Source: an uncultured Verrucomicrobiae bacterium (GTDB lineage: Bacteria; Chlamydiota; Chlamydiia; Chlamydiales; Rhabdochlamydiaceae). Taken from it: a stretch of DNA of 64,000 nucleotides. Position 1 is the stretch's first letter, and each line of letters opens with the position of its first letter. Position numbers and translations under genes: made by a program. The stretch spans positions 51,383 through 115,382 of the forward strand of contig CAWFUG010000012.1 in the NCBI GenBank assembly GCA_963818965.1, read 5' to 3'. Of this stretch, positions 2,833 through 62,804 are shown piece by piece. The notes beneath the pieces were generated by a model. That model was given only the letters and a program-made list of their open reading frames with translations. It was not told where the DNA came from and ran no database searches.

Positions 2833-4518
<1,686 letters not shown>

Positions 4519-6241: not shown

Positions 6242-6408
6242 TATACTGCAATCGGTTGAAAAGCTGCAATTTGGCCATGTCAAAGCCTCAGGGTTCGACG
6301 ATTGAAAGTGGGGGTAGTATTGATGAGATACAACCCCCACTTTCAATCGTCGAACCGCGAGGACTTTCACACAAGCCAAATTGCAGCTTTTCAACCAATT
6401 GCAGTATA
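6242..6408. repeat. Full-length 167-bp palindromic MITE/RPE-like element (arm type A)
   Basis: TATACTGCAAT...ATTGCAGTATA; imperfect inverted repeat along its whole length; core shared with 24871..25037. Confidence 0.92.
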
Positions 6409-8805: not shown

Positions 8806-8888
8806 GGAAATACTACCCTCATTTCCGATCGTCGAACCCCGGGGCTTTGACATGGCCCAATCCCGATTCTTGAGTCACGTTCGGTATA
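8806..8888 (-). repeat. Half palindromic element (arm type C) forming the 3' end of the GT9 gene
   Basis: Minus strand TATAC-22 nt-ATTGGGCCATGTCAAAGCCCCGGGGTTCGACGATCGGAAATGAGGGTAGTATTTCC. Confidence 0.88.
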
Positions 8889-13653: not shown

Positions 13654-14412
13654 GAAAATCTGACGCCAACGGATGCTGTGAAGGGTGGTCTCTTCTTTTT
13701 GGTAGGAGAGCATCGCTTCGAGAATTTCAGAAGAGGAAGCTTTTGCAAATTTCTGAATTTCTGCGTCTGTAAGACGGATAGCCATAGACAGAGGGTCTTT
13801 TCCTTCTCTAATGATCTCTTTTAAATTTGCCAGACACTTCTGAAAAGTTCTTTGTAGAACAAAAAGTCTTAACGAACATCCCGCGATAAAGAGAATGGGT
13901 AAAAAGAGAAAATAAAAGCCTCCTATATCCCAGTCGAAGAGAATTTCTGTTAGAGCCAAGGACCAACTGAAGAGGACGAAAGAGAGGAAAACTTTCGGTT
14001 CATAAGTTTTGAGAAAAAGAGGCCCTAAATAGCGCCTGATGGGATGAGAGGCAGTTTGATACGCCAAAATCTCTTCAAAATAGGGTTCCTCAAACCCCAT
14101 CCGCACTGCATGGACCATTTCATGGGCGAGGACTGAGCTTTTGGAGTGTCTGGGATGGATCTGAATCTGACAGTCGATCTTTCCCTGTTCCAACTCTTCG
14201 ATCCACGTCGCTGCTGCCTCCCAAAGATGGAGATTTTTAGAGCTCTTTTGGATCTTAATCCAGTGGGGGGTCATTTGGAAAAGAGAGGGAACAAGCGCGT
14301 CTGAAGAAATAGAACCACTCTCCGCGCGTTGCAAAAACCCAGAAACTGATTCTCTCGGGCCGGGGAAAATCCCATATTCTCCCCACCTCAATAGCTCCCT
14401 GTCTGAAATCAC
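13633..14412 (-). CDS. Membrane protein with HExxH motif
   Basis: LAHEMVHA and two hydrophobic segments; coupled to the GT32 operon. Confidence 0.65.
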   Translation of the reverse strand: MISDRELLRWGEYGIFPGPRESVSGFLQRAESGSISSDALVPSLFQMTPHWIKIQKSSKNLHLWEAAATWIEELEQGKIDCQIQIHPRHSKSSVLAHEMVHAVRMGFEEPYFEEILAYQTASHPIRRYLGPLFLKTYEPKVFLSFVLFSWSLALTEILFDWDIGGFYFLFLPILFIAGCSLRLFVLQRTFQKCLANLKEIIREGKDPLSMAIRLTDAEIQKFAKASSSEILEAMLSYQKEETTLHSIRWRQIFLEFFTL

Positions 14413-15518
14413 TCTTCACCTGGTTGGAACCGATTCGACTCCGCTATCTTGCGAGAGATGCACCTGTTTATCCAAACGCCTAATCCGATCAAACCGATGA
14501 AATTCAAGACGACACTCATTCCAAGATAGAGCAGCAACCGGTTACTTTTTTTGCTGAGGAGCATCAGCCGCTCGCGCACCATCTTTTCAAAGGGGGACTC
14601 CGTCTCATGCCACGTACCGGCATACTTGTGCTGCGCATAGATCGCCAGCTCCTCTTTAGGAGCGTCGAAGAAGTAGGCGGGAAAGACGATATCGCGATTA
14701 CCGTCTTGGTTGTTCGCTTCTCGAAATGCCTCTGCGAACAGCCAAAAGGTGCGGTGCAATACGCGATTGAGCGTCGTATCGCGATCGACCCCAGGATAGT
14801 CCGCTTGAATCTGATCCCATTTCTCTGCGACAGAGTGTCTATAGGCCTGCAAAATGGGGTGATGAGGACGCGCGCCGATGAGATTATTCGTCGTATGCAC
14901 ACAAGAGGACAAGCTGCTCGTATGCGGCATATCGATGCCGCAGTAAAAATCAAAAGTCTCATTGAGAGGCGCGAACGATTTTAAGCATTTGACATCGTGA
15001 TCGACATACACTCCCCCCTCTTGGTAGAGAATCACGCAACGGAGCAGATCTGATTTCTCTGCATAATTATCCGCCTTTGCAAAGCAACCCTGCAAGTCGT
15101 CCAACTCTAAATCATGCACCCACCTCAGCTGCATCCCAGGACACGGCAAAGGGCGAGCCTGATCGGTCCAAAAACAAAAGGTCCAATCGGGATTTTTCGC
15201 CATCCACGTCCGCACATTTTCCACCGACTCCAAAGGGAAAGGACGAGGGCCCAACCAGATGAAGTGGACGACTTTGGGAATATGCATCTCTTTGTGTGAA
15301 AGAGACAGCAACCCCTTGTTTGAATCGTAGATCCCCTCATAAAGCCTAAGCGCTTCAAAATCCTGTTTAGTTTGCACATACTGCCAAGAGGGGAGCTCCT
15401 TTCCCGTAAGACTTGCAAAATCATCGGAAGAGGGTTTCTGGTACGTCTTTTTCTTAGCGCATCCAAATCCCAAAAACAAACAAGCCAAGATTAATAGCCT
15501 TACGATCAATAGTCTCAT
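14409..15518 (-). CDS. GT32-like (DXD) glycosyltransferase with lipoprotein-like signal and C-terminal TM
   Basis: IPKVVHFIWLG, SDLLR, GGVYVDHD. Confidence 0.85.
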   Translation of the reverse strand: MRLLIVRLLILACLFLGFGCAKKKTYQKPSSDDFASLTGKELPSWQYVQTKQDFEALRLYEGIYDSNKGLLSLSHKEMHIPKVVHFIWLGPRPFPLESVENVRTWMAKNPDWTFCFWTDQARPLPCPGMQLRWVHDLELDDLQGCFAKADNYAEKSDLLRCVILYQEGGVYVDHDVKCLKSFAPLNETFDFYCGIDMPHTSSLSSCVHTTNNLIGARPHHPILQAYRHSVAEKWDQIQADYPGVDRDTTLNRVLHRTFWLFAEAFREANNQDGNRDIVFPAYFFDAPKEELAIYAQHKYAGTWHETESPFEKMVRERLMLLSKKSNRLLLYLGMSVVLNFIGLIGLGVWINRCISRKIAESNRFQPGEE

Positions 15519-16540
15519 GTGCGTCTCCTCAGAAGCGTGCAGAAAAAAATGAGGTTCATCCCCACTAGTACTTTGAGAAAGAGTGCCAAGTTTTTATTTT
15601 TTTGAGCAACTTTTCCCAAAGATTTTTCCACTTTTTTTTCGAAAAGGGATTTTTTGTCCTTAGACTCATCCCACGCTGTCGCATAAAAATGCTGCGAGTA
15701 AAGAGAAGGAATTCCCGACTTTGAGAAAAAATAGGCAGCCGGCAATAGGATATCGACATTGCCTTTCTGGTCGATCGTCTCAAATAGAGAGTCTGAGAGC
15801 GCGATGTAAGTGCGTTGCATGACGACCTCAGCGCGGGAATAATCATCTCTTCCTCGGTACCGCGCCCCAATCGCATCCCATCTTTCTGCAATGAGATCGA
15901 GCACTTTTTCCACAGTCGGGTGGTGGGAGCGGGAACCGATCACTCCATTGCCGCAGGTGATGTTCCTGCCGACAAAGGGCTCGTGGGGCGTCTCTAGACA
16001 ACAAAATAAGTCAAAACCCCGATGCATCCCCTCAAAAGGACGCAGACAGTTGGCATCGTGATCGACATAGACACCCCCTTGATCATAGAGAATCTCATAT
16101 CGCAGAATGTCTGATTTTTCTCCCCAATTCGCAGACTCCTCATAACATCTCTCGAGTTTGGCAAAGGAAAAATCGGAGACCAAAATCGTCTCCATTCCCT
16201 CACAGGGAGGTTCCCTCTCTCGATCTGTCCAAAATTTCACCTTCCACTCTGGATTTTGAGCGATCCAGGTACGGACGTTTTCAACTGATTGGGGCGGAAA
16301 AGAGCGAGGCCCTAGCCAAATGAAATGGATGACAGGGGGGATCTTATAAGATGTGGCTTCTGAAAACTGCTCCTTTTCGTTCTTCTCATACAGCGCTTTT
16401 GCTAGCTGGAGAAATGCGAGATCTTTAGGCTGCGATACAAAGCGAAAATGGGGCGTCTCTTTCCCCATGAGCTGGTAGAAATCCTCAGACTCTCCAAAGA
16501 GCGCGGCCAGCGGAAAAAGCAAAAGGAGAAGTGTTTTCAC
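15515..16540 (-). CDS. GT32-like (DXD) glycosyltransferase
   Basis: IPPVIHFIWLG, SDILRY, GGVYVDHD. Confidence 0.85.
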   Translation of the reverse strand: MKTLLLLLFPLAALFGESEDFYQLMGKETPHFRFVSQPKDLAFLQLAKALYEKNEKEQFSEATSYKIPPVIHFIWLGPRSFPPQSVENVRTWIAQNPEWKVKFWTDREREPPCEGMETILVSDFSFAKLERCYEESANWGEKSDILRYEILYDQGGVYVDHDANCLRPFEGMHRGFDLFCCLETPHEPFVGRNITCGNGVIGSRSHHPTVEKVLDLIAERWDAIGARYRGRDDYSRAEVVMQRTYIALSDSLFETIDQKGNVDILLPAAYFFSKSGIPSLYSQHFYATAWDESKDKKSLFEKKVEKSLGKVAQKNKNLALFLKVLVGMNLIFFCTLLRRRT

Positions 16541-17497
16541 TTAAAACCTCCTCTTTCTAAAAAAAAGGATCCCAAGACAGAGATTAAAACCCGTTAACCC
16601 CAAAATGATCCCCAAATTCTGCGTCTGATCCTTTGTTATCCGCAACAACAGCTCTTCTACCTTCATTTCTGCCTCAGAACTGCGCGTGTACCACGTGCCT
16701 AAATGGCTGTGTCGCGCGTACTGACCTTCCCCCTTCTCTTGTAAACTGAAGAAATGGGGAGGAAATACGACATCACAGCGCCCTTCCTGGCCGTGCGATT
16801 CTCTGATCCCCATATCCAGCGCGCGAAAACTGCGGTGCTGCACGCGATTGAAAAGAGCAGAAGAGTCTCCTCCTGGATATACCCTCTCCAATCGATCCCA
16901 TTCCCTCTGGAGCCATTCGATCGCCGATCTCAAAATGGGATGAGACGGTGCAGCACCGACGAGATGGGGGGAAGGGTTAACCGAAGAGCTCAAGACAGTA
17001 GTACCGAAACGCTCCATGCCGCAAAAAAAATCGCAAGATGTCTGAATCGGATCAATGGCTCGCAAACACTCTACATCGTGGTCAACGTAGACACCGCCTT
17101 CGCTCGAAAGGACAGCGTAGCGCAATAAAAGCGAACGCTCCCCGAAGTTGTCGCACTGAAAGTATTGATCTTCCAGTCTCGTTAAAGGAAAATCTTTAAA
17201 GAAGAGTGTCTTTGCCCCCAAACCGGAAAGAGCCTCTTTCCCATCTGTCCAAAATTTAACTGTCCAATCGGGATGCAAGCGGATCCAGCCCTGGATATTT
17301 TTCACCGAATCAGAGGTTAAAGGCTTGGGGCCCAACCAGATAAAGTGAAGTGTCTTCGGGATGGTTCCTCTTTCTGGTCCCTCTTTTTGTCTTAAACTAT
17401 TGTAGAACTCCAGTCGCTGTACATCTTCAAGTGTCTGTATATAATCGGCATGGACACAAAAAGAAAGCGTCAAAAAAAGAATAATAAAACGTTTCAT
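16541..17497 (-). CDS. GT32-like (DXD) glycosyltransferase
   Basis: IPKTLHFIWLG, GGVYVDHD; signal peptide and C-terminal TM. Confidence 0.85.
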   Translation of the reverse strand: MKRFIILFLTLSFCVHADYIQTLEDVQRLEFYNSLRQKEGPERGTIPKTLHFIWLGPKPLTSDSVKNIQGWIRLHPDWTVKFWTDGKEALSGLGAKTLFFKDFPLTRLEDQYFQCDNFGERSLLLRYAVLSSEGGVYVDHDVECLRAIDPIQTSCDFFCGMERFGTTVLSSSVNPSPHLVGAAPSHPILRSAIEWLQREWDRLERVYPGGDSSALFNRVQHRSFRALDMGIRESHGQEGRCDVVFPPHFFSLQEKGEGQYARHSHLGTWYTRSSEAEMKVEELLLRITKDQTQNLGIILGLTGFNLCLGILFFRKRRF

Positions 17498-17523
17498 AGG
17501 CCTTGAGATTACATCCAAACAAT

Positions 17524-18498
17524 TTAATAAACAACATTTTCATTTCTTAAGATCTCATTCATCCTAGCGTTCACCCAATCAAAATCGAACTGTTTCTCTT
17601 TAAACTGCAAATAGTGGTCTCGGATGGCCACATTCAATATGAGCGCCGTATTTGTATACCACTGATTGTCCCATAGGGCTAAATGGGTATACAGAGTCAG
17701 ATAGTCATAAGGGTCTTGAGAAATTTTGTACGGAAACTCCTTGAGATTATGGACGAGATCTTGTCTGACAAAGGTGAGATTTCCCGTATAGGAAACAGGG
17801 ATATACCCCTTCGTAAGACCTAGTCGCACTGTTGAGATAAAACTAGAACCTGCGCCCACTTTTCCTGGGAACCATTCCCGCAGCGGATCGATGCGGTACT
17901 CTTTTTGGGGAGCGCTTGGAAGCTCTTCAATAATAGGATCTCTATAGGGATTTGTCTCAATGATGACAATTTTCGGAGAAAATTCAGTTAACTTTTCCCA
18001 GACGTAATAGTCGTCACAATCGATATCAATGGAGAGAATGTCTAGGTCATAAGGCAATTGTCCTCTTTTGAGCCAGGCATTCAGATCGTTTTTAGCATCT
18101 TTGTAATCTACAGCCCCTTGAAAGACCCGTACATTGGGAAAATCCCGATAATTAATTGCACACTCTTGCGCTTTAGATGCATCTAATTCAATGGCTATCC
18201 CAGTGAAGCCATAATTTTTAATCAAGTTGTAGGTATTGCTAGAGTAGATCCCGTTATGGGCGCCAAACTCACAAAAAGTTCCCCGCGTGATGTGCAGCTC
18301 TGCTAACAGCTGTTGTAAAATCCCGTCCTCCCCATTTTGGGGGTAGATGTTCTTGCAATATTGATGATATGTGTTGTCCGGTAACTCATAGTGAAACGGG
18401 AGGATATTATCTGTCGGAAAAGGGTCGAACAGTGCTGAGTGGACACCAATGACTGCACCTAAAACCACTACAAAAAAAAATCGAATTACGCTTGTCAT
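17524..18498 (-). CDS. FkbM-like SAM-dependent methyltransferase, exported
   Basis: QNGEDGIL, FCEFGA, LSIDIDCDD motifs. Confidence 0.7.
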   Translation of the reverse strand: MTSVIRFFFVVVLGAVIGVHSALFDPFPTDNILPFHYELPDNTYHQYCKNIYPQNGEDGILQQLLAELHITRGTFCEFGAHNGIYSSNTYNLIKNYGFTGIAIELDASKAQECAINYRDFPNVRVFQGAVDYKDAKNDLNAWLKRGQLPYDLDILSIDIDCDDYYVWEKLTEFSPKIVIIETNPYRDPIIEELPSAPQKEYRIDPLREWFPGKVGAGSSFISTVRLGLTKGYIPVSYTGNLTFVRQDLVHNLKEFPYKISQDPYDYLTLYTHLALWDNQWYTNTALILNVAIRDHYLQFKEKQFDFDWVNARMNEILRNENVVY

Positions 18499-18575: not shown

Positions 18576-18646
18576 GACAGCGCCCGGTCAGGAATTGCGA
18601 ATTTGAATTTTTGATCAGCTCCTGCAATTCCTCACCGGGCGCAGTA
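18576..18646. repeat. Internally deleted palindromic element (arm type E)
   Basis: GCGCCCGGTCAGGAATTGCGAATTTG...GCAATTCCTCACCGGGCGCAGTA; the arm matches the copy at 42682..42764. Confidence 0.75.
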
Positions 18647-24868: not shown

Positions 24869-25168
24869 GTTATACCCCGTGTGCTTAGGAATGGTGCATT
24901 TGAGCGCGTCAAAGCCCCGGGGTTCGACGATCGGAAATGGGGGTTGTATTTCATCAGTACTACCCCCATTTCCGATCGTCGAATCCCGGGAGCTTTCACG
25001 CGGCTCAAATACACCATTCCTAAGCACACGGGGTATAAACTTCTGTCGATTTTCGGGTTCTTTTGGAGGGGTAATATACGCATGTTGATATTACCCCTCC
25101 CAAAAGAATCGAAAATTGGCCAAAATAATCCCGAAAATCGACCAAGCTCAATTTGATGGCAGGCCCTA
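24853..25168. repeat. Second palindrome type (GGGCCTG termini) interrupted by the 167-bp element
   Basis: Left arm GGGCCTGTCGTCAAGTTA|AACTTCTGTCGATTTTCGGG pairs with right arm CCCGAAAATCGACCAAGCTCAATTTGATGGCAGGCCC; inner hairpin GGAGGGGTAATAT...ATATTACCCCTCC. Confidence 0.75.
24871..25037. repeat. Full-length 167-bp palindromic element (arm type B)
   Basis: TATACCCCGTGTGCTTAGGAATGGTG...CACCATTCCTAAGCACACGGGGTATA. Confidence 0.92.
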
Positions 25169-40102: not shown

Positions 40103-40175
40103 TATACCACAGTCGGCTTGAAACTTCGAATTTGGACAGCGCGAAAGCTCCTGCGATTGAGGTGGAAGGGGTATA
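40103..40175. repeat. Deleted palindromic element (arm type F)
   Basis: TATAC-22 nt-ATTTGGACAGCGCGAAAGC...GGGGTATA. Confidence 0.65.
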
Positions 40176-40186
40176 GATCCTGCTTG

Positions 40187-40666
40187 TCAAATTCCCGATT
40201 CTTCAAGGTGTTTCGGTATCATCCCCTCATTTAAAGATAAGTCTAGAGAGGCTTTCGTCCATGAGGAGGGTGACACAAAGTCATGTATCGTAATGGCGAT
40301 GTCGGTGAGAGGACAGCAAATACGGGTTACAGCAGGATGATGGTAAAATACATTTGTCTGGGGTCCTAGTTCAAATAGGGCGGGATCTTCACTATGAAGA
40401 AAGATCTTCTTTCCAGTTGCGATCGCAAACCCCAACTCGAGATGCGTTCCGTATCCTCCAGGGAGAAGGACAACGACAAAATCAGTTTTTGAAATACCTT
40501 CTAATTCGAGAACCGCGACTTCCCGCAACCGCTCTTTGCTGACCGATTTTACGCTTCCATGTACTGTCCAGTCATAGGCAATTTCGTGGCCTAGCGTCTT
40601 CAGCGCCTCTCTCACTAGATTATGGGCGGCCATTCTCAAAAGAGATGTTGCAATGTAATATTTCAT
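40187..40666 (-). CDS. Nucleoside 2-deoxyribosyltransferase-like protein
   Basis: YYIA, YDWT, GTHLELGFA. Confidence 0.65.
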   Translation of the reverse strand: MKYYIATSLLRMAAHNLVREALKTLGHEIAYDWTVHGSVKSVSKERLREVAVLELEGISKTDFVVVLLPGGYGTHLELGFAIATGKKIFLHSEDPALFELGPQTNVFYHHPAVTRICCPLTDIAITIHDFVSPSSWTKASLDLSLNEGMIPKHLEESGI

Positions 40667-40763: not shown

Positions 40764-40872
40764 TACCATGCTCCGCGCGCTATAGGAATGGTGCGAGGGG
40801 GTATAAAAACTGTTCTTTTCTTTGGAGGTAAATTTTGGTAAGGTCCACATGTTATACCCCGCGCGTTTAGAA
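40764..40872. repeat. Two degenerate type B fragments
   Basis: CCGCGCGCTATAGGAATGGTGC...GGGGTATA (ending 40805) and TATACCCCGCGCGTTTAGAA (from 40853). Confidence 0.65.
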
Positions 40873-40916
40873 AGGCTAGGTCATTGTTATGGAAATGGGG
40901 AAATAGGATTGGACTC

Positions 40917-42320
40917 ATGATTTCTGCACTTAACAATTTGAACTTTTATATATTTGCTGCAGTGATCGGACTTTTACTTGGCGTGGGTATCTATAAAACA
41001 AGACATATCCAGTTAGAATCCTCATATCTTTTTGCAGAAAGAAAGACCTCCTGGGGTGCTCTCACTGCAACCTTAGTAATGACTGAGTTCAATAGCGCAA
41101 CGCTCCTCTCTTTTTGTTCTTTGGGATATGTGGCTGGATTTTGGGCGCTCATTTTACCTGCCATTTTTCTTATCGGACTCTTGTTTTATGCCTTAACGGT
41201 AGCAGAAAAATGGAAACGTTTCGATGGCTTTTCTGTCGCAGGGTTTTTCAGAGAGAAATATGGAAACAAGATAGGTGTTTTTGCAAGTTCATTGCTTTTG
41301 CTATCGATGCTTGGATTTAGCGCCGCTTACATTAAATCTCTTGCCCTTTTATTTCAGCCTCTTTTCCCTCAGCTTAATCTTTGGATTATCAGCGCAACTC
41401 TTGTAGGAACAATCCTAGCAATGATGCTAAAAGGCGGTCTTACTGCCATTATCCGTACGGATATATTAAGCTTTTTCATGACATTGTTATTTATACCTCT
41501 GATGATTTTTTTTGTTTGGAACCTGCCAACAGAAGAAATTCTTCCATTTTCTTTAGCGCAAGGGCAGGAAATTTTGCCGATCCATTTTGTCTTTTCTTTG
41601 ACTATTTTAACGATGTTTACCTATATTTTAGCCCCTTGGTACGGACAAAAAATTTTTGCTGCTCAATCTGCTAAGACTGCTTACTGGGCAGTTTTTTCAG
41701 CAGCAGTTTTTGTCTTTTTCTTGTACGGAGCAGCGATCTTTGCAACAGCTCTTCTCAAACAAAAGGGAATAGAATGTTCTTCTGCCGAGCAAGCTTTGCC
41801 ACAATTGATTAATCAATTCTTCCCGCTAGGGTTTAAAGGTTTCGCTTTTGCGATCCTCTTCACTACTTCAGCGACCACCTTGACGGGGGTCTGGAGTGCC
41901 ATGACGGCAATGCTCATAGGGGATTTTCTTAAACCAAAAATCGCCAGTCGCAATCGACCTATTTGGATAACAACATGTTTTGCTGTGCTTTCTTACCTTT
42001 TAGCTAATTCCTTAGTCGACCATGTTTTTGATAAGCTGATTTTAGCTAACATTCCTGTAGCGGCCCTCTCTTTTGGATTGCTTGCGGGCTTTTATTGGCA
42101 GAAAGTAACCCGCCTCGGCGTCTATTTAAGCATCATAGTGGGATGTATGTGTGGAGTAGGTTCCTACCTCCGATTCGGCGAATCAGGAGGGTACACCTGG
42201 TATTGGGCTGTCTATGGAATCCCGCTTTCATTTTTGGCTGGAGTTATAGGCTCTTACGGAAGTTTAAAGCTGCGGAATCGATACAATAGCGATCTCCCGT
42301 CGGTGGAGGGCCATCTTTAA
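40917..42320 (+). CDS. Sodium:solute symporter family protein
   Basis: Multi-TM protein, GGLTAIIRTD motif. Confidence 0.75.
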   Translation: MISALNNLNFYIFAAVIGLLLGVGIYKTRHIQLESSYLFAERKTSWGALTATLVMTEFNSATLLSFCSLGYVAGFWALILPAIFLIGLLFYALTVAEKWKRFDGFSVAGFFREKYGNKIGVFASSLLLLSMLGFSAAYIKSLALLFQPLFPQLNLWIISATLVGTILAMMLKGGLTAIIRTDILSFFMTLLFIPLMIFFVWNLPTEEILPFSLAQGQEILPIHFVFSLTILTMFTYILAPWYGQKIFAAQSAKTAYWAVFSAAVFVFFLYGAAIFATALLKQKGIECSSAEQALPQLINQFFPLGFKGFAFAILFTTSATTLTGVWSAMTAMLIGDFLKPKIASRNRPIWITTCFAVLSYLLANSLVDHVFDKLILANIPVAALSFGLLAGFYWQKVTRLGVYLSIIVGCMCGVGSYLRFGESGGYTWYWAVYGIPLSFLAGVIGSYGSLKLRNRYNSDLPSVEGHL

Positions 42321-43380
42321 ATAGATCTCCAAGATGTCCATTGCACCGACTGCATTTAGCTTCCTTACCTGAAGAAAAAGGGTTCCATTTTGATTCAAGG
42401 GTTACGTTTTCAGGACAAATAGGAGCCTTAAAACTGGGCCATCCAGTGCCCGAGTCAAACTTTGCCGCTGAACTGAAAAGAGGAAGGGCGCAACCAGCAC
42501 ACTCATAAATGCCCGCCTTTTTGTTGTCGAAATAGGCATTTTTAAAGGGAGCTTCTGTTCCCCCTTTTCTTAAAATCTTAAATTGTTCGGGCGTGAGTTT
42601 CTCTTTCCATTGTTCTTCTGTCAGAATGAGTTTTTTTCCATCAAATCGATAATTTGAAGGGCAATCGCTAATTTTTTGTAAGGAAATACAGGCCCCCTTT
42701 TCGATCGTGGAGTCCCGGGGCTTTGACGCGCTCAAATTCGCAATTCTTGACCGGGCGCAGGATAAGAGAGAAATTTTGGATGAGCCCCACACTTCTTTGA
42801 GTCTTTTATCCCTTCCACAACGCATTCGATAAAATTTATATTTAATCGGGTTTTTTTTATAATATTTCTGGTGATATTCTTCGGCAGGGTAAAACGTGTT
42901 TATAGGCAGGATTTCTACTAAAATAGGCTTTACTTGATTCGCTTTAATTAACTCTTCTTTTGAGGCTTCTGCTTCCCTTTTTTGGGTGTCTGTCGAATAA
43001 AAGATCACTGGGCGGTATTGATCTCCGGTATCGCAAAATTGCCCGTCATTACGTGTGGGATCAATATTATGCCAATAAAAATCTAGCAATTGAGCATAGG
43101 TGACTTTTCGGGGATCAAACACTACACGTACAGATTCTAAATGGCCAGTTCCTCCTGCAGACACTTCCTCATAGGTCGGATTTTTAGTATTTCCACCAGC
43201 ATATCCAGCAGTAGTAGATATCACCCCTGGGACTCGATCAAAATCATGCTGAAGACACCAAAAACATCCACCTGCGAAAATCGCTGTCTCCGTGTTTTCG
43301 GAACTAAATAAATTCGAAGTCATTAAAAACATTCCAATGACAATCTTGACAAACAATCTAGGATATGAGAATACGATCAT
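42244..43380 (-). CDS. msrAB: Fused methionine sulfoxide reductase MsrA-MsrB, probably exported
   Basis: FAGGCFWC, AEEYHQ, SGTGWPSF, RYCIDS; exact start uncertain. Confidence 0.92.
   Translation of the reverse strand: MIVFSYPRLFVKIVIGMFLMTSNLFSSENTETAIFAGGCFWCLQHDFDRVPGVISTTAGYAGGNTKNPTYEEVSAGGTGHLESVRVVFDPRKVTYAQLLDFYWHNIDPTRNDGQFCDTGDQYRPVIFYSTDTQKREAEASKEELIKANQVKPILVEILPINTFYPAEEYHQKYYKKNPIKYKFYRMRCGRDKRLKEVWGSSKISLLSCARSRIANLSASKPRDSTIEKGACISLQKISDCPSNYRFDGKKLILTEEQWKEKLTPEQFKILRKGGTEAPFKNAYFDNKKAGIYECAGCALPLFSSAAKFDSGTGWPSFKAPICPENVTLESKWNPFSSGKEAKCSRCNGHLGDLFKDGPPPTGDRYCIDSAALNFRKSL
42682..42764 (-). repeat. Half palindromic element (arm type E) in frame in the MsrA-MsrB linker
   Basis: Minus strand TATCC-22 nt-ATTTGAGCGCGTCAAAGCCCCGGGACTCCACGATCGAAAAGGGGGCCTGTATTTCC. 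Confidence 0.88.
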
Positions 43381-43409
43381 AATCTTGTTATTAACGCATG
43401 AAGTGGGCA

Positions 43410-44777
43410 ATGTCAATATCAAATTTCTATTCTCTTGTAGTTATTGGAGCGGGCGCCGGAGGGCTTGTCGTTGCAATTGGATTTGCAAAAGCTGGTAAAA
43501 AGGTTCTCCTTATCGAAAATGGGAATTATGGCGGCGACTGCACAAATTTCGGATGTATTCCAAGTAAAACGCTCATTGGTCTTGCTGAGCATCAAAAAAA
43601 AGACCTTTCTTTCGTGCGTCAAATTGTCCAGGAAGTCAGGGCTCATGAAGAACCAGTATCACTAAATAAACTCGGCGTCGAAACATTAACAGCACAAGCA
43701 TCTTTTCTTGAACCTCACGTAATTCTCGCAAAAGAGAAGTCTGGAAAAACGGTTCAAGTTCAGGCCAAAAAAATTGTAATTGCGACGGGTTCTTCTCCTC
43801 AAATCCCTCCTATTCCAGGTCTTAATGAAACCCCTTTTCTGACTAATGAAAGCATTTTCAATCTCGAACAGATACCCAAGAGTTTGATAGTTTTAGGAGG
43901 AGGACCCATTGGATCTGAGCTTGCGCAAGCATTTCAGCGTTTAGGTACTGCGGTCCATTTGATTCACTCACATTCAGAAATTTTAGCGAGAGAATCAAAA
44001 GAAGCTAGTAACATCCTTATTGAACAGTTTAGAAAAGAGGGGATGACTCTTCATTTAAATTCTAAAATTGAGAGGATTGAATATAAATCCTCTAGCTTTA
44101 AGGTGGTATTATCTGACAAAACTGTCGAAGCGGAAAGGCTTCTTGTCGCTACAGGTAGAAAACCTCACATAAACGAGCTTCAATTAGAAAAAGCGGGAGT
44201 GGCTTTTACTGATAAAGGAGTGATTGTAGATGCCTTTGGAAGAACCTCTCAAAAACATATCTTTGCCATTGGCGATGCTACAGGGCCTCCCTTTTTTACT
44301 CATCTGGCGGAGAGTCGAGGTCGAACTGTATTAACAACGTTGCTGCTATCTCCCTTTTTTAAAAAGAAAATCGATCGACAAGCGATTCCCCGTGTTACTT
44401 ACACTGATCCTGAGATTGCTTCCATTGGCTTATCAGAAGAGGAAGCTTTTGAAACATATGGGCAAAAAAAGATTGCGGTGTACTTAGTTCCTATGTCGGA
44501 AGTCGACCGCGCCATTACGCAGGGCCGCACTGAAGGTTTTGTGAAAATTGTCACCAAGCGGTGGAGTAGCCATATTTTAGGCGCTACCATCATTTGCCCT
44601 CGTGCGGGGGAGATGCTCAGCGAGATCTCTCTTGCTATGTTCGCCAAAATTCCTTTGCGTAAATTGGCTGGATTAATCCATCCCTATCCGACGTATAGCC
44701 TTGCCATCCGTCGTGCAGCCGACAAGTGGCTCTCTCAAACAATCCTCTCATTTATTAGGACGTTATGCAAAAAATAA
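43410..44777 (+). CDS. Pyridine nucleotide-disulfide oxidoreductase (mercuric reductase-like)
   Basis: GAGAGG, GGDCTNFGCIPSK, GGGPIG, HPYPT; no C-terminal Cys-Cys. Confidence 0.88.
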   Translation: MSISNFYSLVVIGAGAGGLVVAIGFAKAGKKVLLIENGNYGGDCTNFGCIPSKTLIGLAEHQKKDLSFVRQIVQEVRAHEEPVSLNKLGVETLTAQASFLEPHVILAKEKSGKTVQVQAKKIVIATGSSPQIPPIPGLNETPFLTNESIFNLEQIPKSLIVLGGGPIGSELAQAFQRLGTAVHLIHSHSEILARESKEASNILIEQFRKEGMTLHLNSKIERIEYKSSSFKVVLSDKTVEAERLLVATGRKPHINELQLEKAGVAFTDKGVIVDAFGRTSQKHIFAIGDATGPPFFTHLAESRGRTVLTTLLLSPFFKKKIDRQAIPRVTYTDPEIASIGLSEEEAFETYGQKKIAVYLVPMSEVDRAITQGRTEGFVKIVTKRWSSHILGATIICPRAGEMLSEISLAMFAKIPLRKLAGLIHPYPTYSLAIRRAADKWLSQTILSFIRTLCKK

Positions 44778-45463: not shown

Positions 45464-45613
45464 TCGTCTTTTCTTGCTTATATCTACCCCCCTCTTCGAC
45501 AACTCAATCCCGGGGCTTTGGCGCGGCCCTACGGCCAACTTTTGAGTCCACTTGGGTATACGTTTGCAGCTCTTGTCTTTTTAACAACTGTTCTTCGGAT
45601 TAAAAATTTTTGA
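45453..45613 (+). pseudogene. Possible remnant of a CDP-alcohol phosphatidyltransferase (YnjF-like) gene
   Basis: MLDNRL start overlapping the DedA gene end and a TFAALVFLTTVLRIKNF* end, separated only by a half element. Confidence 0.4.
45481..45560 (-). repeat. Half palindromic element (arm type D)
   Basis: Minus strand TATACCCAAGTGGACTCAAAAGTTGGCCGTAGGGCCGCGCCAAAGCCCCGGGATTGAG...GGGGGGTAGATA. Confidence 0.85.
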
Positions 45614-48740: not shown

Positions 48741-48789
48741 TATACCCAAGTGGACTCAAAAATTGGCCATAGGGCCGCGTCAAAGCTCC
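48741..48789 (+). repeat. Type D element arm supplying the stop of the 604-aa gene
   Basis: TATACCCAAGTGGACTCAAAAATTGGCCATAGGGCCGCGTCAAAGCTCC. Confidence 0.85.
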
Positions 48790-52885: not shown

Positions 52886-53725
52886 ATGGCAATCAATCCT
52901 ATCTCTAATCGTTATTACGCCCCTTTGTCCCACCTACACCGGATGACGACCTCCCTTGCCTACACGGCTGCTTACACCATCCTGGGCCTCGCTATGCGCA
53001 TTTTAAGGGTTGCGGAAATGCAAACAAAATATGAGCTCCTCAGCGATTTCTACAGTGCCCGGGCATCCGGGGGATGCAACTACCGCCGCCGCATTTTTGG
53101 CGAATTTTCGATCAATCCTTCTGTCAATCGAGAGAAAGTAGATACACTCATTTGCTCCACGAACCAAGACAAGCTCAATGCCCTCTTTAAGAAAAAAGCG
53201 GGCCATATGCCCTCATCGATCGGTTTGAAAAAAAGTAAACTCTCCCTAAAAAAAGCGACGAGAGGCATCTGTCTCTCCGCTTCTTTAAAATTTTTAAAAA
53301 AATATTTCGAGAGGATCAAAAAAGAAAAGGATCCTCAAAAAGTCATCGCCTCATTGAGCGAAAAGTTCAAAGAGGGCGTTTCAGAAAAGACAGCGCTCAT
53401 CAACCAATTGCAAGAAGCTGAAAGTTTCTCTTCGCGCGTGACTAAGGCAGAAAAAATACAAGCGACAGCGAATCTCTATCGTTTAAACGTCCAATCTGTA
53501 AAATCCCATGGACGACAGAACCCTCGACACCTAAAAGACGGGGGATATATCGTTGCTATAGTGGACGATGGCCCCATTGGTCACGCCTGCGCCTATATCA
53601 AACACAAAAAACAGCATTTTCTCTTCGATCCCGATATCGCCACCTTTGCCCTTCCCAAAGACCTAAAAAAGACCCCCCTATGCGAGAGCGGAGAAAAAGC
53701 GTTCTTCTTTAAAGTATATCCGTAG
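52886..53725 (+). CDS. YopT-like (C58) cysteine protease, candidate effector
   Basis: GICLSAS, GHACAY, FLFDPD give a Cys-His-Asp triad pattern. Confidence 0.65.
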   Translation: MAINPISNRYYAPLSHLHRMTTSLAYTAAYTILGLAMRILRVAEMQTKYELLSDFYSARASGGCNYRRRIFGEFSINPSVNREKVDTLICSTNQDKLNALFKKKAGHMPSSIGLKKSKLSLKKATRGICLSASLKFLKKYFERIKKEKDPQKVIASLSEKFKEGVSEKTALINQLQEAESFSSRVTKAEKIQATANLYRLNVQSVKSHGRQNPRHLKDGGYIVAIVDDGPIGHACAYIKHKKQHFLFDPDIATFALPKDLKKTPLCESGEKAFFFKVYP

Positions 53726-53793
53726 TGACTTAAAAGTTGGCCGTGAGGCACCGTCAAAGCCCCACGGCCAACTTTTAACCTCACTTGGGTATA
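53715..53793. repeat. Internally deleted type D element overlapping the YopT-like stop
   Basis: TTAAAAGTTGGCCGTG...GTCAAAGCCCCACGGCCAACTTTTAA...CACTTGGGTATA. Confidence 0.8.
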
Positions 53794-57562: not shown

Positions 57563-57593
57563 TATACCCAAGTGGACTTAAAAGTTGGGTATA
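57563..57593. repeat. Minimal type D element
   Basis: TATACCCAAGTGGACTTAAAAGTTGGGTATA. Confidence 0.75.
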
Positions 57594-62784: not shown

Positions 62785-62804
62785 TTTGAGTCCACTTGGG
62801 TATA
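62785..62804 (-). repeat. Type D element terminus
   Basis: TTTGAGTCCACTTGGGTATA is identical to 45541..45560. Confidence 0.75.

Follow-up and report, generated by a model that had tools for sequence, protein, structure and literature searches.

A palindromic MITE of Chlamydiota whose hairpin core is found with ends resembling those of several insertion sequence families

Background

Two palindromes of 167 bp, both beginning with TATAC and ending with GTATA, are located at positions 6242-6408 and 24871-25037 of the window, the 64,000-nucleotide stretch of Rhabdochlamydiaceae DNA analysed here. They pose three questions: what kind of element they represent, what keeps the arms of each copy complementary, and what moves them. 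Review text describes the origin and the mobiliser of most bacterial palindromic repeats as unknown (PMC2229807). The usual account treats a MITE as what deletion leaves of an insertion sequence (IS), bound to a single IS family. According to the sequence-only reading, the palindromes belong to a chlamydial family of TA-flanked MITEs in which length and fold are conserved but arm sequence is not, and which is mobilised in trans. The comparisons below support this proposal, movement in trans being deduced. The host genome (G000) has 2.24 Mb in 12 contigs and is 88% complete.

Results

The two full copies and their target site

Both copies were confirmed as self-complementary units of equal length. 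Each folds into a single long hairpin, with energies of -120.1 kcal/mol for copy 1 (z -20.7) and -142.7 kcal/mol for copy 2 (z -22.5); none of 200 shuffled sequences folded as well in either case.

Copy 1 (6242-6408, no strand assigned) consists of a 163-bp element at 6244-6406 between two TA copies. It precedes a UvrD/REP-family helicase gene by 13 bp and is also upstream of a divergent namZ-like gene (neighbours named by Pfam). Its left outer arm, an IS630-type terminal inverted repeat, occupies 6244-6271 on the plus strand and is mirrored at about 6379-6406; beyond the first five bases it is identical to the best sampled IS630 end at 14 of 23 positions, and similar ends are present at two other loci (L073 and L075). 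The short form of the conserved core word, a variant of AAAGCCCCGGGG, is at 6282-6293 (plus strand). Its pairing partner is the long form at 6355-6367; the duplex contains a bulge of one base and mismatches between identical bases. The orientation of the central loop (6322-6326, no strand assigned) relative to the bulge is opposite to that in copy 2 (copies C12_57624 and C12_76253, respectively, in the genome-wide loop comparison).

Copy 2 (24871-25037, no strand assigned) is a 163-bp element at 24873-25035, again between two TA copies, and is flanked by two minus-strand genes, one manC-like and the other O-antigen-ligase-like. The short core word is at 24911-24922 (plus strand), the long form at 24985-24996 and the loop at 24951-24955. 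Two changes private to this copy, at arm positions 10 and 12, are each present on both arms. A short inverted repeat with 29-nt arms is found 11 bp from copy 2, at 25049-25116.

The target site was defined from tandem copies and from a second, unrelated palindromic repeat family of about 150 bp (C1:58125, C9:411808 and some 30 other sites of the genome), which often adjoins the MITE and serves as its target. Tandem copies of the MITE overlap by one TA. Thirty-two of 33 listed sites in the second repeat are empty and one is filled, the filled site having one extra TA; these sites are paralogous, whereas the sequence-only reading had suggested a search for orthologous empty ones. Thus the sequences indicate that the element proper is 163 bp long (TAC...GTA) and is accompanied by a TA duplication. 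Another filled site, at C12:47355, holds a derivative of the window's family (family B below). A sequence like the short inverted repeat at 25049-25116 follows a copy of the second repeat at C8:338103. An orthologous empty site for copy 1 was not obtained in five relatives, in all of which the gene order upstream of the helicase differs, and no copy was found upstream of the orthologous helicase gene in these five. In the whole genome, eight of 53 full copies lie in frame inside a long ORF, and 45 are not spanned by a long ORF.

Fragments in the window

Thirteen further positions had been listed as fragments of the same family. The list stands in part: eight positions (136, 8806, 18576, 40103, 42682, 45481, 48741 and 53715) match the family profile at E<0.001, two are weak, and three (23531, 40764 and 62785) do not match the profile.

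Half elements were found on the minus strand at 8807-8888 (E 4e-16), where the IS630-type arm is a different one, at 45484-45560 (E 4e-16) and at 42682-42763 (E 3e-19). The last of these is inserted in frame into a fused msrA-msrB gene (42244-43422, minus strand), where it lies in the linker between the MsrA and MsrB domains; the orthologue in one relative (G023) does not contain it, and the protein is about 27 residues shorter at that spot. On the plus strand there are a left-half fragment at 136-200 (E 4e-12), a left-arm fragment at 48741-48789 (E 4e-8) and a decayed, internally deleted copy at 18578-18632 (E 1.7e-4). A 79-bp internally deleted hairpin with both ends is present at 53715-53793 (no strand assigned, E 7e-4). 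At 40103-40175 (no strand assigned) a family-B left arm is joined to a family-A right end (E 1e-11 and 0.0017 with the respective profiles), and a family-C arm follows at 40174-40219 (profile C, E 1.6e-7). The weak candidates are a 23-base end fragment at 40853-40875 (plus strand, E 0.23, repeat family D14) and a 31-bp mini derivative with both ends at 57563-57593 (no strand assigned, E 0.07, repeat families D10 and I21). As for the positions lacking a profile match, 23531 is only a 9-base end match, arm words are visible by eye at 40764, and a right-end fragment is located at 62785-62804 (minus strand, repeat family D3).

The window also contains tandem paralogous genes at 854-2761 and 14409-18498. 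Two copies are 87% alike over 300 nt, and there is a series of genes of similar size whose repeats are spaced by about 1 kb.

Families and distribution

The genome contains 79 TATA-ended hairpins of all lengths. Fifty-three are full-length (163-172 bp) and fall into family B, that of the window (34 copies), family A (18 copies) and family C (one copy). The profile search produced 177 loci in the genome and none in the reversed genome, and BLAST matches were found in 16 of 40 relatives, from five families of the order; the expectation of copies outside the window is thereby satisfied. Six arm types were found in family B, as had been estimated from the window, and eight when families A and C are included.

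Families A and C are also TA-flanked hairpin MITEs with IS630-type ends, and their cores do not match the family-B profile. The 18 copies of family A, about 170 bp long (e.g. C1:74566-74735), are near-identical, with outer arms about 99% alike; this expansion is a recent burst. A family-C example is C1:121725-121888, and families A and C are also represented in the window at 40152-40219. The family-B element itself is 163-166 bp long and multi-copy, and contains no transposase gene. Together with its terminal inverted repeats and target-site duplication, these features give it the testable properties of a MITE.

Two peculiar derivatives were noted in the genome. A 47-bp end-to-end deletion derivative recurs at C1:81144, C8:205413, C9:46280, C9:92330 and C9:192787, reflecting either repeated deletion or mobility of the mini form. 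In the region C4:10150-12720 (L013), at least 2.5 kb is duplicated as a mirror image: identical ORFs are found on the two strands, and element halves mark the bounds; the duplication may be an assembly artefact or a product of fold-back amplification.

The family had not been recognised as a described one. Within the window, no match attained the gathering score of any Rfam family. At six loci only sub-threshold Rfam matches were observed, mostly to microRNA-precursor and snoRNA models. The family profiles were also compared with two stretches of E. coli which presumably contain ERIC-like copies. One 19-base word in one of them was found (L053:356-374, E 0.04, 3 bits). Homology to the 127-bp ERIC consensus is not supported by this word, whose likeness to the core word is probably due to chance and possibly to a common binding site.

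The core pattern was found in at least 121 stretches in GTDB, and most of the 80 titles listed are those of Chlamydiota. It had no matches in viral contigs and none in plasmids. Among the record titles of genomes carrying the element are Chlamydia trachomatis, Acidobacteriota, Verrucomicrobiae and archaeon (L084, L086, L087, L118); they look like submitter labels at odds with genome size or protein identity. The records titled Acidobacteriota or Verrucomicrobiae are probably mislabelled chlamydiae, since their proteins reach identities of 78% (324 aa) and 95% (84 aa) with those of the present genome and their genomes have 1.7-2.1 Mb. One record titled Anaerolineae (L150) is a chance match to the pattern and contains no hairpin.

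Conservation of the core

The core had been described as fixed. This did not hold: invariance is confined to two short words and the flanks of the loop, and since these words are the search pattern, their phylum-wide invariance is partly by construction. The inner stem has 81% identity between copies in this genome and about 60% across the phylum, and it covaries in the same way as the outer arms.

The median longest perfect stem is 23 bp, and only one of 56 clusters contains a perfect palindrome. This rarity fits selection against perfect palindromes, in which hairpin nucleases may have a role; no match to SbcC over the cut-off was found in this 88%-complete genome. In 35 of the 56 clusters the net insertion adds a number of bases divisible by three, and the mean number of open frames per cluster is 0.95, compared with 0.42 in a mirrored-shuffle null, the clusters being non-independent in both counts. 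Because of these lengths and open frames, the eight in-frame copies among 53 and the in-frame half copy in msrA-msrB, frame neutrality may help the element to persist. Candidate reasons for the persistence of the core words, the bulge and the length of 160-166 bp are interruption of the palindrome, a protein site and a frame-preserving length.

Complementarity of the arms

The outer 33 bp are 97.8% complementary within copies but 62.8% identical between copies, which puts numbers on the earlier observation that arms dissimilar between copies match within each copy. Private changes were counted in sibling groups of four or more, covering 26 of the 34 family-B copies. Thirteen are present on both arms and 15 on one, whereas 0.16 symmetric changes are expected. 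Full copies were chosen for arm symmetry, which biases this count towards symmetric changes, but such a bias cannot plausibly account for an 80-fold excess. The inner stem has seven symmetric and eight one-sided private changes.

The central loop is found in the two orientations relative to the asymmetric bulge in a ratio of 16:17, and three family-B and two family-A loop types have an identical sequence in both orientations. The bulge is absent in one copy. The covariation check proposed in the sequence-only reading, done across 42 elements, revealed two-sided changes in 41 of 53 predicted pairs and few one-sided G-U changes. This pattern is a better fit to DNA copying than to selection for paired RNA.

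Homogenised arms together with inverted spacers are the signature of template switching between inverted repeats (PMC8604942; PMC5941160), the latter paper dealing with arm correction in proteobacteria. In the chlamydial element, the arms likely stay complementary because they appear to copy each other. As the whole element is a palindrome, we strongly infer that either arm can act as the template for its partner, template switching during replication being the most likely route. Recombination between copies can be an alternative source of the loop flips and of hybrids.

Outer arms and IS630 ends

The transposase of an IS630 element from a relative (DDE_3; L045) was used as a query, and relatives of it were found in 46 of 400 genomes of the phylum. 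Thirty-six ends were picked and four of them dropped as mis-picked, leaving 32 sampled chlamydial ends. These ends resemble the MITE arms. Over 23 positions beyond the first five bases, the 48 distinct arms of this genome have a mean of 13.4 matches to the best IS630 end; the corresponding means are 9.4 when the arms are shuffled and 9.9 at 3879 genomic TATAS sites. Matches of at least 15/23 were observed for 17 of the 48 arms, as opposed to 0.15% of the shuffled arms and 60 of the 3879 TATAS sites. The GC-rich arms, including those of window copy 2, have 10-13/23 matches to the sampled ends; thus their exact IS630 partner is not in the sample. All 88 arms from other genomes have their best match among the ends of one IS630 class (IS630a). 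At four loci (L065, L067, L073, L080) IS630 copies stand in tandem with MITE ends, with one TA in common.

The absence of a transposase from the window extends to the genome, in so far as it is 88% complete: no intact IS630 or Y1 transposase was found, and the DDE_3, Y1_Tnp, DUF4096 and ISAzo13 profiles had no match. The only trace of IS630 is a small remnant at C9:237740-237878. In family f20 (30 genomes of about 1.0-1.4 Mb), the IS630 query, DUF4096, ISAzo13 and three end patterns were unmatched in the 29-30 genomes scored. The presence of DDE_3 as a predictor of copy number was rejected, as the two do not track each other among 41 genomes; DDE_3 is unmatched in G000, G007, G017, G020, G023 and G032. 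As for an autonomous parent in this genome, the half elements that face inward at C4 and C11 enclose, by inspection, no transposase-like ORF.

Comparison of the sequences thus identifies the arms as IS630-type ends in this genome, and the similarity of the ends suggests that an IS630 transposase moves the element in trans.

One core with several kinds of ends

Core hits with flanks were listed at 117 distinct sites, of which 77 have symmetric classifiable ends; the remaining 40, decayed, hybrid or due to chance, were left unclassified. IS630-type ends account for 44 of the 77 classified listed matches and CTAG-type ends for 17. GGG/GGA ends with a 3-bp TWA duplication are present in 11 and ACTCACC ends in three. 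CTTGAC ends with TTAA were found once (and three more times in a separate search), and GAGGG ends with TCA once.

Cognate IS candidates were found for most of these ends. The IS630-type ends correspond to L045/L062. The GGG/GGA ends match ISAzo13 elements (L392/L404/L398; the ISAzo13 profile has matches in nine of 251 genomes); IS5 had been tried for the TWA|GGG ends, no such IS was found, and ISAzo13 fitted instead. The ACTCACC ends flank a 1155-bp IS701-family element (L305) with six end pairs in one genome (G144), and the CTTGAC ends flank another IS701-type gene (L414). The GAGGG ends match elements with a DUF4096 transposase, which we take to be IS5 (L226/L227); this class rests on one MITE. 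The CTAG-type ends weakly resemble a single candidate, an IS630 of another lineage (L039), and pattern searches for IS with such ends retrieved MITEs only.

With the ends of their own IS class the MITE arms have 14-17.5 of 20 bases in common, against 4-10.5 with those of the other classes, the exception being the CTAG class (9.1); as the end classes were defined by start motifs, the own-class match is partly by construction. In this second IS630 class (9.1/20), 17 of 34 arms have the best match in their own class, which is represented by one sampled IS with one end one base off. One IS701 end is matched exactly over 14 bases, the element having been found with the MITE's own 14-mer, and a second at 17-18 of 20 positions. 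The target duplications go with the ends: TA; 3-bp TWA/TNA; 3-5 bp; TTAA. They are evidence independent of the start-motif definition.

The inner cores are as similar between end classes (identity 0.59-0.66; 0.44-0.49 for the first IS701 class, IS701a) as within them (0.57-0.61). The outer arms are at background between classes (0.18-0.42). On the core tree, constructed from 56 core clusters and 107 columns and having many open forks, the end class changes 15 times, the minimum being five and the mean for shuffled classes 20.7; thus the end classes are still clustered on the tree. The starred branches force at least seven end-class changes for IS630a. Hybrids with two end classes were observed (L137 and the second element of L309), and one genome (G409) contains three end classes. 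Taken at the level of sequence comparison, one core appears with the ends and the matching target duplications of IS630, ISAzo13, IS701 and IS5, with one clear and one tentative lineage of IS630, two lineages of IS701 and one case of IS5.

The core profile had no match at E<=1 in a sample of 16 whole IS of four families, and thus the core is not a deletion remnant of these IS. Identical end types also bound unrelated hairpin cores of 160-180 bp. At least ten other Chlamydiota hairpin MITEs of 160-185 bp share end types with the family (L241, L289, L294, L310, L317, L326, L331, L332, L357, L011), and the core profile matches neither ten such MITEs nor families A and C. The Chlamydiota hairpin MITEs, all of comparable length, thus combine various cores with various ends in the manner of a matrix. 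A 27-bp outer arm is common to the core of the present family (L321) and an unrelated one (L317). Since the end types bound other cores and this arm is shared, the donors of ends may often be other MITEs.

Discussion

The element is a non-autonomous MITE composed of outer arms and a hairpin core, in which one arm is probably copied onto the other and the ends are probably exchanged between IS families. The outer arms of about 20-30 bp would serve as transposase end sites, recognised in trans by an IS630 transposase in this genome and by DDE transposases elsewhere, and would enclose an imperfect hairpin core. Arm copying would make new mutations symmetric, flip the loop and yield internally deleted mini-copies. 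A foreign end would be acquired on one side, either when elements insert in tandem or within one another or by recombination with a different MITE or IS; arm-to-arm copying would then mirror this end, creating a symmetric element that a different transposase could move. The order of these steps, one-sided capture and then mirroring, is deduced. The core would thus represent the lineage and the ends its replaceable adapters.

It is unlikely that ends and loops were shuffled only by recombination between copies, with selection for matching ends keeping the symmetry and no arm copying. Many hybrids and tandem arrays are known, a symmetric inner hairpin is replaceable from another copy in either orientation, and one outer arm is common to different cores. 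However, private changes on both arms are some 80 times more numerous than independent mutation would produce, and mirrored private changes were likewise counted in the inner stem, where there is no end site. Drift offers another account of the end classes, as gradual derivatives of one ancestral end that came to resemble several IS families by convergence. Arm copying would change both ends in one step, the IS630 arm types form a continuum, and length is conserved across classes. We nevertheless regard drift as very improbable: it leaves aside the exact 14-base match to one IS701 end and the near match to the other, the change of target duplications with the ends, and the background identity of outer arms between classes. 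It also predicts intermediates, whereas there are sharp junctions to complete foreign ends, as in L137.

The core could alternatively be kept as a functional RNA hairpin acting in mRNA processing or stability, as proposed for ERIC and Correia, the covariation then being due to selection on RNA pairing. The fold is very stable, most predicted pairs covary, the majority of full copies are outside long ORFs, and effects of ERIC and NEMIS on mRNA stability are described (PMC2229807, PMC3184786). On the other hand, nearly all changes are two-sided Watson-Crick changes, and the commonest substitution mismatches are same-base ones (172), unpairable on either strand, compared with 162 of the wobble type and 65 GA/CT. 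Further, the copies are lineage-specific insertions, as seen upstream of the helicase gene in the five relatives. Any RNA effect on neighbours may be a side effect, and the exchange of ends would be left unexplained. A role of this kind as the reason for the core thus seems improbable. A REP/REPIN-like element moved by a tyrosine transposase (HUH, RAYT/TIRYT) would also be palindromic and reach a high copy number, and repeat families associated with TIRYT are described (PMC3733652). This reading is hardly tenable, as Y1_Tnp (PF01797) has no match in G000 or in the high-copy relatives G007, G017 and G020, target duplications and DDE-type ends are present, and only one of 15 Y1 loci, in a high-copy genome, has element fragments nearby.

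The preferred reading, a MITE with copied arms and exchanged ends, can be compared with known systems. RUP of Streptococcus pneumoniae is non-coding and has TA ends, and its mobilisation in trans by IS630-Spn1 was proposed from end similarity (PMC2229807), the same argument as used here; however, it has 107 bp and one partner IS, whereas the chlamydial element is a near-complete palindrome of 163-166 bp with the ends of four IS families. ERIC/IRU/RU-1, named MITEEc1_IS630 in ISfinder (PMC11602168), shares the TATAC...GTATA ends, the TA duplication, the long stem-loop and in-frame fusions, but is 127 bp long, and exchange of ends is not mentioned for it in the relevant part of the source (PMC2759123). 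The Rickettsia palindromic elements (RPE) are similar by description, being palindromes of about 150 bp inserted in frame into genes of an intracellular bacterium, as are the in-frame full copies and the msrAB half copy here. The accounts of RPE name no mobiliser and list the target duplication as unknown (PMC10969869, PMC2229807), whereas in the chlamydial element both were identified by comparison. YPAL/RU-2 of Yersinia resembles the element in its length of 167-168 bp, hairpin and target duplication (PMC2759123, PMC2229807), but does not have TA ends (PMC2229807, Table 1), and its printed sequence, unaligned, is unlike by eye. The IS982-derived MITE of Cardinium cOegib is likewise a symbiont MITE kept by a transposase in trans; as presented in the source, it derives from a defective copy of one parent IS in one strain (PMC9769881), whereas the chlamydial core occurs in many chlamydial families and in no sampled IS.

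In the open papers covered, we found no description of this family or of a bacterial MITE core with the ends of several IS families. The term chlamyd is absent from the main text of PMC11602168 and PMC10969869, the catalogue of the former possibly holding such elements unnamed, and the term MITE is absent from the Rhabdochlamydia genome paper (PMC9723776).

The ordinary part of the finding is a TA-flanked element which, in this genome, would depend on IS630. Its unusual part is a core that appears to have repeatedly changed transposase family by exchange of ends. What is new is a core with no detectable IS parent, paired with the ends of four IS families and accompanied by hybrids and signs of arm copying. 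A further-reaching reading, to which we give even chances, is that the heritable unit is a selfish core belonging to no transposon, which uses its own symmetry as a copier and has moved many times between IS630, ISAzo13, IS701 and IS5, as have other cores of 160-180 bp. If true, this would be a general route by which long palindromic bacterial repeats with no known parent IS originate and survive. One practical consequence is that a single lineage is divided among several families when MITEs are classified by their ends. A core combined with such varied ends offers a testable route for a non-autonomous element to outlive its transposase, and specific transposase-MITE pairs can be named. The data suggest that the core survives by changing its ends and making use of any transposase at hand.
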